A stretch of 32,000 nucleotides of DNA from Nitratidesulfovibrio vulgaris str. Hildenborough (GCF_000195755.1 NC_002937.3:2910001-2942000); one strand, 5' to 3'. Shown: positions 17,177 to 25,814, counted from the first letter of the stretch. The notes: generated by a model not told the origin, from the sequence alone. Made by a program: numbers and translations.

Positions 17177-17192
17177 TGGCACGTTCCCTGCT
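17177..17192 (+). promoter_or_regulatory. Candidate sigma-54 (-24/-12) promoter for the TRAP-GRE operon: TGGCACGTTCCCTGCT
   Basis: The -24 element TGGCACG is perfect and CTGC lies at -12 with correct GG-N10-GC spacing. It is 74 nt upstream of the dctP ATG. A sigma-54 activator gene lies at 24393. Confidence 0.65.
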
Positions 17193-17265
17193 CAAGCCGT
17201 ATCGGCAACCTCACCAAGAACACGACATGAATCATTCGGGACAACATCCAAGACAAGGAAACGAC

Positions 17266-18276
17266 ATGAGAAACTTCTTCAAAGCCAACGCCATCGCTGC
17301 CATTGCCTGCATCGCGATGCTCGCGGCGGGCTCTTATGCCGAAGCCGCCAAGCGCATCACCATCCGCCTTGCCCACCCCATGGCACCGGGCAACAACGTG
17401 ACCCTCGGGTACGAGAAGTTCAAGGAGATCGTGGAAGCGAAGAGCAACGGCAAGGTCCGCATCCAGCTTTTCGGCAACTGCATGCTTGGCAGCGACCGCG
17501 TGACCATGGAAGCGACCCAGCGCGGCACTCTTGAGATGGCTTCGAGCTCATCCCCGAACATGACCAACTTCTCGAAGGAGATGATGGTCTTCGACCTGCC
17601 CTACATCACCAGCCCCGAACATCAGGAAAAGCTCTACAAGGCCCTCGACGAAGGTGCCCTCGGCGAGCGCCTCGACGCGATTGCGGCGGGCATCGGCCTG
17701 AAGCCCATCATGTACAGCGAATACGGCTACCGCAACTTCGCCACCACCAAGAAGCCCATCAAGACCGCCGACGACCTCAAGAACCTCAAGGTGCGCACCA
17801 CCGACTCCCCCATCGAAGTGGCTGTCGCCAGCGCCCTCGGCATGAACCCCACTCCCGTCAGCTGGGGCGAGACCTACACGGCACTGCAGCAGGGCACCGT
17901 CGACGGCGAAGGCAACACCTTCGGCCTGCTCAACGACGCCAAGCACACCGAAGTGCTGCGCCATGCCATGGATTCGGCGCACAACTACAGCATGCACCTG
18001 CTCATGATCAACAAGGCGTACTTCGACAAGCTGCCCGCCGACGTGCAGCAGATTCTGGTCGACTCCGGCAAGGAAGCCCTCGCCTACCAGCGCGCCATCT
18101 CCAACGACCTCGAGAAGAAGGCCGAGCAGGCGTTCGTCGAGCGCGGCATCGTCATCACCAAGCTTGCCCCCGAAGAGCGCGCCAAGATGCGTGAGCTGAC
18201 CCGCCCGGTGTGGGACAAGTTCAGCAACGACATCCCCGCCGATCTCGTCAAGCTCGTGCAGGAAACCCAGCAATAG
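17266..18276 (+). CDS. TRAP transporter substrate-binding protein (DctP family)
   Basis: The ATG is preceded by AAGGAA. There is a signal peptide ([27 protein letters not shown]) and DctP-type sequence ([21 protein letters not shown]...). The track ORF from 16702 is an over-extension. Confidence 0.9.
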
Positions 18277-18287
18277 CATGCAGACCG

Positions 18288-18310
18288 GGCCGGCGGCACC
18301 GCCGCCGGCC
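18288..18310 (+). other. Intercistronic GC hairpin (GGCCGGCGG-loop-CCGCCGGCC) between dctP and dctQM
   Basis: A perfect 9-bp stem read directly, with no U-tract. Confidence 0.6.
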
Positions 18311-18356
18311 ACGGGTACGCAACGCGCGTTCCAGTCTCAGTCATCAAGAGGTCACC

Positions 18357-22923: not shown

Positions 22924-23029
22924 CCCGGACGCGGTCATGCACGGAAGTCGACCGGCGCCGCCACCGACGCGGAACAGTCCACCATCCAGCACCATCAGGC
23001 CCCGGGGCACCGGGTACAACGGACATGAC

Positions 23030-23953
23030 ATGAGCTCCATCGCCGACAGAAAGACCACAGGGATCACGTTCAACATCCAGAAATACTCCGTCCATGATGG
23101 CCCCGGCATCCGCACGGTGGTGTTCCTCAAGGGATGTCCCCTGAAATGCCGCTGGTGCAGCAACCCCGAATCGCAGCGCAAGTCCGTTGAACTGGCCTAC
23201 AACACGGGACGCTGTCTCACTCTCGCCAAGTGCGTCCGTTGCGTGGAAATCTGTACGGCCGGAGCCATCTCCCGCGCGGAGGACGACACCATCAGCATCG
23301 ACCGCGCGCTGTGCAACGACTGTGAGCAGCTGTGCTCCGGCGCCTGCCCCTCCAACGCCCTCATCACCTACGGTGCCCACAAGACCGTGGACGAGGTGCT
23401 TCGCGCCGTCGAACAGGACAGCCTCTTCTACGCCCGTTCCGGTGGCGGCATGACCATCTCCGGCGGCGAACCCTTCGCCCAGCCCGCCTTCACGCTGGCA
23501 CTGCTGCGCGAGGCACGCCGTCGCCGTGTGCATACCGCCGTCGAGACATGCGGCTACGCCTCGTGGGACGACATGGCAGCCGCGCTGCCCTTCCTCAACT
23601 ACGTCCTCTACGACATCAAGAATCTCGACGACGCCCGGCACAAGGAAGCCACCGGCGTCTCCAACCAGCGCATCGTCGAGAACCTGCGCGCCCTGCGCGC
23701 CGAATTTCCGGGAATCCCCGTCCTCGTCCGCACACCGGTCATTCCCGGCTTCAACGACAACGAGGCCGACATCGCCGCCATTGCCGCGCTCACCCGCGAA
23801 CTTGGTGTGTCATACCAGCTGTTGCCCTACCACCGTCTCGGTACCCAGAAGTACCATTTCCTCGACAGGGAGGCGCCCATGGGTGAGGTGACCCTCGATG
23901 CGGAGACCATGCGCAGGCTGGAGGCGGTCGTGGCGCAGACGGCGGACAGCTGA
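23030..23953 (+). CDS. iseH: Glycyl radical enzyme activating enzyme (radical SAM, with ferredoxin-like insert)
   Basis: It has the radical SAM motif CPLKCRWC near the N-terminus, additional clusters CVRCVEIC and CNDCEQLCSGAC, and the SAM-binding motif GGEP. The track ORF from 22229 is an over-extension. The ribosome-binding site is weak. Confidence 0.9.
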   Translation: MSSIADRKTTGITFNIQKYSVHDGPGIRTVVFLKGCPLKCRWCSNPESQRKSVELAYNTGRCLTLAKCVRCVEICTAGAISRAEDDTISIDRALCNDCEQLCSGACPSNALITYGAHKTVDEVLRAVEQDSLFYARSGGGMTISGGEPFAQPAFTLALLREARRRRVHTAVETCGYASWDDMAAALPFLNYVLYDIKNLDDARHKEATGVSNQRIVENLRALRAEFPGIPVLVRTPVIPGFNDNEADIAAIAALTRELGVSYQLLPYHRLGTQKYHFLDREAPMGEVTLDAETMRRLEAVVAQTADS

Positions 23954-24061
23954 ATCTGCCCACAGCCCGGCCAACCCTGAATATCGACATAAGGCACACC
24001 GATGACCCCTCTCTGGCCAGTCACAGGCGCCACCCGACGACCAACTGATCAAGCAGACAAG

Positions 24062-24100
24062 AAAACGTGCCGGAGAAGCTCTCCGGCACGTTTATCTTTT
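24062..24100 (+). terminator. Rho-independent terminator ACGTGCCGGAG-AAGCT-CTCCGGCACGT followed by TTATCTTTT
   Basis: A perfect 11-bp stem plus a T-tract, about 110 nt after the activase stop. It ends the TRAP-GRE operon. Confidence 0.85.
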
Positions 24101-24392
24101 AAAATCAGAATATTAATACAAACGCAGCGCCACTTCAAATCCACATTGCGCCACATTCATTTACATTATATGTTACAACAAGCGTATATTAAAGAATCGC
24201 CTTCAACGTCCTGCGTGAAACGCGTCGCCCCCCTCTCTGCCGCACGTCGAGACCCCAGAACAACACGGTTGAAGAAGATGTTGTGCAGGCTCATCCTGCC
24301 GAACTGCATCAGTGCAGGCATCGGCAAGATGGACATGACACTTCGCATCACGCCATGACGTATCACATGACTGCACAGTATCAAGGCATCAG

Positions 24393-25814
24393 ATGAAAAA
24401 GATCATTGAACATATTGAAAGTATTTTTGATATTCTTAGCGACGGCATCTATATCACCCAACGCGACGGCACGACCCTGCTGGTCAACCGCATGTACGAG
24501 CAGCTGACCGGCCTCTCTTTCAAGGACCTCAGGGGGCGCAACGTTCACGACCTCGTCGCCGACGGCATCTTCGACACCATCCTGAACCCCGAAGTGGTGC
24601 GGACCAAGCGTCCGGCCGTTTCCGTGCAGCACGTCCGGCAGAGCAAGAAGATCATCCTGCGTGGCTACCCGGTCTTCGACGAACATGGCGAAGTCTGCCT
24701 CGTGGTCACGTTCGCCCGTGACATCACCATGATCACGCAATTCCGAGAGCAGATTGCCCAGCAGAAGCAGCTCATCGAGACCTTCAACGACCGTATCGAA
24801 TGCATGCTGCATGAGCAGGTGCGCAACAGCCAGCCCGTCTTCGAAAGCGAAGTCATGCAGCAGGTGCTCGACCTCTTGCAGCGGGTGGCTGCCACGGATG
24901 CCAACATCCTCATTCTGGGCGAGACGGGCGTGGGCAAGGACGTGTTCGCGAGGCTAGCCCACGAATACAGCCCGCGCAGCAGCAAGATGTTCCTCAAGGT
25001 GGACTGTGGCAGCATCGCCGAGAACCTCATCGAATCAGAGTTGTTCGGCTACGTTCCCGGTGCGTTCTCCGGAGCCAGTTCCAAAGGCAAGGCGGGCTAT
25101 TTCGAAATCGCCGACGGCGGTACCGTCTTCCTCGATGAAATCGGTGAACTGCCGCTGCCCATGCAAGCCAAGCTGCTGCGTGTGCTACAGGACAGGGAGG
25201 TCATGCGCGTAGGCTCGTCACAGGCACGCAAGGTGGATGTGCGCATCATCGCCGCCACCAACCGCGACCTCGCCGAAGACGCCAAGGCGGGCAAATTCCG
25301 CAGCGACCTCTACTATCGCCTCAATGTCGCCGTACTGGACCTGCCGCCGCTACGTGAACGGCAACAGGACATCATCCCCCTCGTTGAGCGGTTTCTCGAT
25401 CGCTTCAATGCCAAGTACCGCCGCAACATGACCCTGCCCAAGGGCACACGGCAGGCACTCCAGAACTACAAGTGGCCCGGTAACGTGCGCGAGATGCAGA
25501 ACCTCATCCAGAGCCTCGTGGTGACGTGCGAGGGGCATTCCATCAAGCCGGAGCACCTCCCTCCGCACATACAGAAGGCCGCGCGCAATCGCACGGCATA
25601 CACGCCTCCCGCGCCCGATGACGCCCGACCGCTGAAGGAGATCATGGCAGACATCGAGCGCGAAATCCTCGAAGAGGCCGTGCGTACGCACGGTTCGGTG
25701 TGCAAGGTGGCACGCATGTACAAGATCAGCCGCACCACACTCTTCCGCAAGCTGCGCGGCTCATCGCTCGCCGGGGTCTCGGGGGATGAGGAGCAGGAGA
25801 ACACCGGACAGTAA
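24393..25814 (+). CDS. Sigma-54-dependent transcriptional activator (PAS sensor - AAA+ - Fis-type HTH; no receiver domain)
   Basis: The PAS-like N-terminus is [27 protein letters not shown]. Walker A is GETGVGKD and the GAFTGA-variant loop is GAFSGA. It also has [16 protein letters not shown] and a C-terminal HTH ([16 protein letters not shown]). Confidence 0.9.

Follow-up and report, generated by a model that had tools for sequence, protein, structure and literature searches.

An isethionate sulfite-lyase locus in Nitratidesulfovibrio vulgaris Hildenborough and its conserved amidohydrolase-like neighbor

Results

Identification of the isethionate utilization locus

We analyzed a 32,000-nucleotide stretch of the Nitratidesulfovibrio (Desulfovibrio) vulgaris str. 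Hildenborough genome (NC_002937.3:2910001-2942000), referred to here in its full length as the window, and identify within it, with a probability of about 0.97, the isethionate utilization locus DVU_2820-DVU_2827 of this organism. The locus is an already characterized system, the type example of isethionate sulfite-lyase, and its identification is a correct rediscovery and not a new finding. The starting point was an original prediction, made from the DNA sequence alone, of five plus-strand genes encoding a TRAP-type importer, a glycyl radical enzyme (GRE) with its activase, and a PAS/sigma-54 activator. Open reading frames (ORFs), domains, and motifs place all five genes at the predicted coordinates and on the predicted strand. 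An exact-sequence look-up returned exact N. vulgaris database matches for the proteins of these five genes and for an amidohydrolase-like protein encoded beside them (Table 1).

The GRE, IseG, and its radical-SAM activase, IseH, are the same proteins, residue for residue and with the same neighboring genes, as D. vulgaris Hildenborough Q727N1 and Q727N0. These two proteins were expressed by Xing et al. in 2019 (PMC6453916, Nat Commun 10:1609), who reported that IseH puts a glycyl radical on IseG and that IseG converts isethionate 1:1:1 to sulfite and acetaldehyde with a kcat of 91.6 per second and a Km of 44.8 mM; taurine and ethanolamine were not substrates. Because the window protein is identical in sequence to the assayed Q727N1, we accept this reaction for the window IseG. 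The assignment to the IseG/IseH (also called IslA/IslB) system, made in the original prediction, is thus borne out by exact identity to proteins that have been assayed and, for IseG, crystallized.

Active site of IseG

IseG carries the glycyl radical motif RIAGYSAYF within a Pfam Gly_radical domain, and its thiyl loop, SGCTEARMP, contains a single catalytic cysteine followed by x-Glu. Counted from the ATG at 20367, which is preceded 7 nt upstream by an AAGGAG ribosome-binding site, the radical glycine is Gly803 and the loop residues are Cys466 and Glu468, just as had been predicted. In the 2.4 Å isethionate-bound structure of IseG (PDB 5YMR; PMC6453916), Arg187, Gln191, and Arg676 grip the sulfonate, and Phe680, Ile190, and Thr310 are in van der Waals contact with isethionate. 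The three sulfonate contacts lie at their published positions in the window protein, and R187, I190, Q191, T310, C466, E468, R676, F680, and G803 all agree with the published numbering, which a 2026 review also uses. The "two Arg and one Gln" that the original prediction named as the sulfonate set correspond to Arg187, Arg676, and Gln191.

A sequence search of the PDB returned entry 5YMR as identical to the window IseG over residues 24-828, except for E132A, D133A, and R135A in the PDB chain, which also lacks the first 20 residues. Bilophila IslA (7KQ3, 1456 bits) and HpsG (6LON, 1231 bits) came next, and the structures of CutC, glycerol dehydratase, and HypD scored far lower (E=1e-133 to 1e-159). 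The IslA/IslB pair of Bilophila wadsworthia (7KQ3/7KQ4; Peck 2019, Dawson 2021) shares the catalytic Gly, Cys, and Glu with IseG, as well as the Arg/Gln/Arg/Phe/Ile/Thr/Trp/Val pocket (residue numbers shifted by +2), and a PAS regulator is encoded next to it. This shift, also given in the 2026 review, agrees with the numbering offset of about 2 residues in the original prediction. In IslA, mutagenesis by Dawson et al. in 2021 showed the counterparts of the Gly, Cys, Glu, Gln, and two Arg residues to be essential. The two systems differ in their surroundings: the gene for the B. wadsworthia enzyme lies in a microcompartment operon that also encodes an acetylating aldehyde dehydrogenase and a phosphotransacetylase, whereas the window enzyme is paired with a TRAP importer.

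The iseH gene starts 176 bp downstream of iseG. Its product contains a CX3CX2C motif (C36-x3-C40-x2-C43) along with eight further cysteines for two ferredoxin-like clusters, and it matches TIGR02494 with 383.6 bits against a cut-off of 174.

Table 1. Genes and regulatory elements of the locus in window coordinates. Locus tags 2824 and 2825 are taken from a 2024 proteomics table; the other tags come from the 2015 regulome paper and consecutive accession numbers.
Feature	Position	Strand	Details
DVU_2820, Amidohydro_2-like protein	15744-16580	-	278 aa; Pfam PF04909 E=1e-36; exact match AAS97292.1
Candidate sigma-54 -24/-12 element of DVU_2820, GGGCATGGTTCTTGCC	16621-16636	-	3 consensus mismatches; 41 nt before ATG; inferred
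Putative activator-binding box, GTTTCACGGGCGCATC	16975-16990	.	degenerate GTTGCA-N4-TGCAAC palindrome
Putative activator-binding box, GTTTCGTTTTTGCATC	16995-17010	.	degenerate GTTGCA-N4-TGCAAC palindrome
Putative activator-binding box, GTTCCAAAAATGAAAC	17063-17078	.	degenerate GTTGCA-N4-TGCAAC palindrome
Operon sigma-54 -24/-12 promoter, TGGCACgttccCTGCT	17177-17192	+	one mismatch to TGGCAC-N5-TTGCW; 74 nt before dctP ATG
DVU_2822, IseP, DctP-type binding protein	17266-18276	+	336 aa; Pfam DctP E=1.9e-76; exact match Q727N3
DVU_2823, IseQM, fused DctQ+DctM permease	18357-20261	+	634 aa; exact match WP_014524574.1
DVU_2824, IseG (= IslA), GRE	20367-22853	+	828 aa; exact match UniRef100_Q727N1 / AAS97296.1
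DVU_2825, IseH (= IslB), radical-SAM activase	23030-23953	+	307 aa; exact match Q727N0
Bidirectional terminator-like hairpin	24063-24093	.	14 bp stem; between iseH and regulator gene, within ORF 24002-24358
DVU_2827, PAS + sigma-54 AAA+ + helix-turn-helix enhancer-binding protein	24393-25814	+	473 aa; exact match AAS97299.1

The TRAP transporter

The TRAP importer of the original prediction matches the characterized isethionate transporter IsePQM of Oleidesulfovibrio alaskensis G20. The window IseP aligns with O. alaskensis IseP (PDB 8T9T) at 80% identity, gapless, over all 336 residues. In the O. alaskensis protein, the ligand is contacted by R156, R177, S95, N98, Y153, N217, D77, and H244, and the site is lined by P38, M39, L221, and W200. 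All 12 of these positions are identical in the window protein (P38, M39, D77, S95, N98, Y153, R156, R177, W200, N217, L221, and H244). O. alaskensis IseP binds isethionate with a Kd of 0.95 uM (Biochem J 2024, 481:1901), and the orthologue from D. piger (FI11049) binds it with a Kd of 0.5 uM and does not bind taurine (PMC6453916).

The permease is a single 634-residue chain with DctQ at residues 47-184 and DctM at residues 218-628, and it matches PDB 9PYM, "Isethionate TRAP transporter permease protein DctMQ", with 1153 bits over residues 2-633. The 591-residue AAS97295.1/Q727N2 is the original Hildenborough call for this permease and has a later start. As in the window, the QM permease of O. 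alaskensis G20 is fused, of equal length, and encoded next to the lyase genes, and G20 transposon mutants of the transporter genes do not grow on isethionate. The two systems belong to different species, with binding measured for the G20 protein and the window proteins compared by sequence; on these grounds, the window IseP and IseQM would likewise import isethionate.

Substrate specificity and competing annotations

We considered three other identities for the GRE. The first, which is also its current RefSeq name, is an HpsG-type sulfolyase/dehydratase for (2S)-3-sulfopropanediol (DHPS), with the TRAP system importing DHPS. WP_010940090.1 bears the name "(2S)-3-sulfopropanediol dehydratase", and the window IseG scores 1581.6 bits, above the cut-off of 1000, in the NCBIfam equivalog of that name, NF048011.1. 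B. wadsworthia HpsG (6LON) has the same Cys-x-Glu loop and the same Arg/Gln/Arg sulfonate triad, numbered Arg183/Gln187/Arg672 in the 2026 review. The NCBIfam model, however, scores HpsG at 1508 bits and IslA (7KQ3) at 1504 bits (both sequences rebuilt from printed alignments). Because IseG, HpsG, and IslA score alike, NF048011.1 offers no discrimination between isethionate lyases and the DHPS lyase.

The triad is similarly limited. The original prediction had proposed aligning the protein with characterized enzymes to look for the sulfonate-binding residues. These are indeed present, but their occurrence in HpsG means that they mark C-S lyases and not isethionate specificity. What does separate an isethionate lyase from HpsG is overall identity together with positions 186, 190, 310, and 680. 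The window IseG is 73% identical to IslA versus 63% to HpsG, and both it and IslA carry F186, I190, T310, and F680, in contrast to Y, L, A, and I in HpsG. Over a larger set of window positions (186, 189, 190, 194, 308, 309, 310, and 680), HpsG has Y, A, L, P, A, S, A, and I, and it acts on a three-carbon sulfonate to give hydroxyacetone. Also against a DHPS enzyme are the crystallization of IseG with isethionate and its stoichiometric turnover, as well as the retention in the window binding protein of every isethionate contact of IseP. Among characterized proteins, the isethionate binders of D. piger and O. alaskensis belong to a sequence-similarity cluster other than that of the DHPS binders. 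Together, these data largely refute the HpsG-type identity, and we regard it as very improbable. Since DHPS lies outside the set of substrates tried on IseG in PMC6453916, the enzyme may have a minor activity on it.

The second identity, that of the original genome annotation, is a pyruvate formate-lyase with its activase and a C4-dicarboxylate TRAP transporter. The 2015 paper on the sigma-54 regulome named the genes in this way, as did a study of response regulators in 2011 and, in 2024, both a proteomics paper and a preprint. Pyruvate formate-lyase has adjacent cysteines in its thiyl loop, whereas IseG has a single Cys followed by x-Glu. The pyruvate formate-lyase equivalog TIGR01255 scores IseG at 100.1 bits against a cut-off of 994.2, PDB entries for pyruvate formate-lyase match two short stretches only (E=1e-22), and the activity found in the published assay is that of a C-S lyase. 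The original prediction had rejected pyruvate formate-lyase, and the single cysteine, the TIGR01255 score, and the published assay all uphold that rejection; we give the annotated identity next to no credence. It had also expected older annotation to read formate acetyltransferase, which holds for the original genome annotation; the current RefSeq entry carries a different wrong name.

The third identity, another 1,2-eliminase with the Cys-x-Glu loop (choline trimethylamine-lyase, glycerol/propanediol dehydratase, or hydroxyproline dehydratase) acting on an imported non-sulfonate, shares fold and loop with IseG, as the matches to the CutC, glycerol dehydratase, and HypD structures attest, but is equally negligible: the corresponding NCBIfam equivalogs score far under their cut-offs (544 versus 1050 for CutC and 554 versus 1100 for HypD), the sulfonate-binding residues are reported to be absent from enzymes of these types, and ethanolamine and taurine are not turned over. 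CutC is the closest structurally characterized non-sulfonate relative and follows the same 1,2-elimination logic. It differs in having no sulfonate-binding residues, in the shifted position of two substrate loops, and in the abstraction of the opposite C1 hydrogen.

Regarding the wider family, the FRIQTCERFG signature occurs in 109 of the 122 GRE matches in related loci fetched for comparison. Some genomes have more than one IseG-type gene, either two in one locus (L024 and L036) or two in separate loci of the same genome (L016 and L022, Desulfosediminicola flagellatus). One further GRE (L074) has a mixed pocket with F186 but L190, A310, and I680. Judging from their sequences, such multi-copy and mixed-pocket genes may represent further substrate variants of C-S lyases.

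Regulation of the locus

DVU_2827 contains Pfam PAS_4/PAS_9, Sigma54_activat (E=1.1e-67), AAA_lid_14, and HTH_50/HTH_8 domains, and its GAFTGA-type loop reads GAFSGA at residue 223. The PAS/sigma-54 activator of the original prediction is this protein, the counterpart of islR in close relatives. Kazakov et al. in 2015 (PMC4641369) predicted a DVU2827 regulon of DVU2820 and DVU2822-2825, which they read as pyruvate formate-lyase plus dicarboxylate transport and as pyruvate metabolism. The window gene is DVU2827 itself; the pyruvate reading is one point on which the 2015 paper and our analysis differ. Peck et al. in 2019 reported that a G20 mutant of the predicted regulator gene (islR) cannot use isethionate, and G20 transposon mutants in the enzyme, activase, transporter, and regulator genes lose growth on isethionate and keep growth on sulfite. 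In a survey of binding sites from 2011, a second response regulator likewise has DVU2822-2825 among its listed targets.

The left boundary of the original prediction falls exactly on the opening base of a sigma-54 -24/-12 element, at 17177. We compared promoters and neighborhoods across 79 related loci fetched from species genomes: 34 of 35 have a -24/-12 element ahead of dctP, and 64 of 78 have one ahead of iseG. Relatives without TRAP genes have such an element upstream of iseG, whereas none with up to 3 mismatches lies within 400 nt upstream of iseG in the window. For DVU_2820, PMC4641369 states a sigma-54 promoter, and the candidate element that we find, located in the control region shared with the operon, has counterparts at a like distance (36-58 nt) in loci L004-L008.

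In the related loci, a 16-bp palindrome, GTTGCA-N4-TGCAAC, usually occurs in two copies, ≈100 and ≈153 bp before the -24 element. It matches far above shuffled controls, and both promoter and palindrome are retained across about 80 loci. In a four-species alignment whose intergenic DNA has otherwise diverged, the three putative boxes in the window keep their positions and line up with better-matched copies from the other three species.

Between iseH and the regulator gene lies a strong terminator-like hairpin, which suggests that the operon ends after iseH and that the regulator gene has its own promoter. By this sequence feature, DVU_2827 is probably transcribed separately from the sigma-54 operon. 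An ORF at 24002-24358 (118 residues) in the same interval was rejected as a gene, with no Pfam match and the hairpin overlapping it.

The amidohydrolase-like neighbor DVU_2820

DVU_2820 is transcribed divergently from the isethionate operon and, as a predicted member of the DVU2827 regulon (PMC4641369), would share its regulator. Of 39 well-flanked IseG loci, 26 have an orthologue of it, compared with 13 for the TRAP binding protein and 30 for the regulator. When metagenomes were searched in reverse, starting from DVU_2820, 21 of the 23 well-flanked loci contained an IseG-type GRE no more than 9 kb away, and many of these loci have the order enzyme-activase-amidohydrolase on one strand with short gaps. 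The association of DVU_2820 with C-S-cleaving GREs is thus a dedicated one. Loci with the amidohydrolase partner include L121, L124, L126, L130, L132, L146, L150, L151, and L156-L159. In L150 and L151, two of the loci from the reverse search, the GRE has the HpsG signature, and because these two GREs are HpsG-type, the amidohydrolase tracks C-S-cleaving GREs generally and not the formation of acetaldehyde. The Bilophila gene cluster also ends with a "predicted amidohydrolase", and the literature searched assigns no role to the amidohydrolase-like protein.

An alignment of 28 family members shows D5, R7, R9, R62, D63, D95, H97, D121, H187, R202, E214, and D232 to be invariant, along with Ala239, which stands where related decarboxylases carry the beta-8 Asp. 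The Pfam PF04909 match begins only at residue 41, and the N-terminal IDFRFRP segment occupies what we take to be the HxH site of the family. Judging from this alignment, DVU_2820 is without the canonical beta-8 Asp metal ligand and probably without the HxH motif too. The closest solved structure is that of the uncharacterized BB4693 (3IRS/3K4W). We rejected an identity as a metal-dependent bile salt hydrolase: those enzymes are large and secreted, with an amidohydrolase 3 domain in one of two 2026 preprints, and DVU_2820 is a 278-residue Amidohydro_2 protein.

A tentative proposal, which we hold to be possible but not the likelier outcome, is that DVU_2820 is an unrecognized member of the module and supplies a step that is missing from radical C-S lyase pathways in general. 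As speculation, it may act on a compound derived from sulfite, for example the alpha-hydroxysulfonate adduct of sulfite and the carbonyl product.

Surrounding genes in the window

Upstream of the five genes, the window contains the amidohydrolase-like gene, a TetR gene, a resistance-nodulation-division (RND) efflux system, and formate dehydrogenase genes, and downstream it contains part of a tRNA, an integrase gene, and phage-like genes. The efflux system (8385-14491, minus strand) comprises an outer-membrane factor, an AcrB-type pump of 1070 residues, and a membrane-fusion protein. A divergent TetR-family repressor gene (14948-15556, plus strand) accompanies it, and the two are flanked by the formate dehydrogenase genes on one side and the isethionate locus on the other. 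The catalytic subunit of the formate dehydrogenase (4554-7592, minus strand) has an in-frame TGA at 7026-7028, in HQARV*HSPTVA, that is a selenocysteine codon; because of this TGA, a mechanical ORF list splits the gene into 188- and 807-residue parts. FdhB-like (3843-4502) and FdhE-like (2822-3805) genes follow it, and proteins of the ExbB/MotA family and with a TonB C-terminal domain are encoded at the left end of the window (141-2162, plus strand).

On the other side of the locus, the 3' 44 nt of a tRNA-Arg(TCT) at 26187-26230 (minus strand) abut a tyrosine-integrase gene (26283-27656, plus strand), beyond which small phage-like genes extend to 32000. A 99.6%-identical strain (L002) has an intact tRNA followed by unrelated genes, which indicates that the tRNA, immediately past the regulator gene, is the integration site of an island. 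No intact tRNA was detected in the window by ARAGORN, and an Rfam scan of the whole window at gathering thresholds returned no RNA element.

Discussion

Our analysis assigns DVU_2820-DVU_2827 to isethionate utilization, and the pathway can be outlined as follows. IseP would take isethionate (2-hydroxyethanesulfonate) in the periplasm and IseQM would import it, as extrapolated from the 80%-identical characterized orthologue. IseH sets the radical on Gly803 of IseG, from which it moves to Cys466. Cys466 abstracts a hydrogen from C1 of isethionate, Glu468 deprotonates the hydroxyl group, and Arg187, Gln191, and Arg676 keep the sulfonate in place. Cleavage of the C-S bond yields sulfite and acetaldehyde; for this step, both the reaction and a substrate-bound structure have been published for the exact protein. 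Based on the established physiology of the organism, the sulfite then enters dissimilatory sulfite reduction and is converted to H2S. Transcription would start from the sigma-54 promoter at 17177 and be activated by the PAS enhancer-binding protein encoded downstream, in line with the genetics of a relative, probably via the palindromic boxes at 16975-17078.

Several observations weigh against parts of this assignment. The reported Km of IseG is high at 44.8 mM, and DHPS was outside the set of substrates tried. The literature search gave no growth or knockout experiment with isethionate for the Hildenborough strain of D. vulgaris, the in vivo studies read being of D. piger, B. wadsworthia, and G20. 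With respect to regulation, the boxes in the window fit the consensus at only 9-10 of the 12 specified positions, and the palindrome is not enriched across the window (22 matches versus 15.7 expected), with three of the matches clustering at 16975-17078; taken alone, the boxes do not reach significance in the window. The hairpin at 24063-24093 speaks against the published placing of the regulator gene in the sigma-54 operon (PMC4641369). In addition, the fate of acetaldehyde is not encoded locally. The original prediction had pointed to a lack of adjacent acetaldehyde-consuming or microcompartment genes, and this extends across the window, in which gene and domain annotation found neither an aldehyde or alcohol dehydrogenase nor a shell protein gene. 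The L002 strain, which does not have the downstream island, encodes an iron-type alcohol dehydrogenase ≈8.6 kb past the lyase gene, beyond unrelated genes, and we saw no evidence linking it to the isethionate module.

The naming of these proteins has practical consequences. RefSeq calls IseG and IseH "(2S)-3-sulfopropanediol dehydratase" and its activating enzyme, although HpsG itself is described in the literature as a sulfolyase and not a dehydratase. Given this misnaming and the pyruvate formate-lyase label in 2024 papers, the wrong reaction may sit in metabolic models and omics interpretations of D. vulgaris. This annotation error and DVU_2820, a conserved, co-regulated partner of the lyase, are what the locus adds to the characterized system. 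More broadly, the isethionate pathway is the means by which Desulfovibrio and Bilophila turn C2 sulfonates from host and diet into sulfite and then H2S, a process that bears on gut disease and sulfur cycling.

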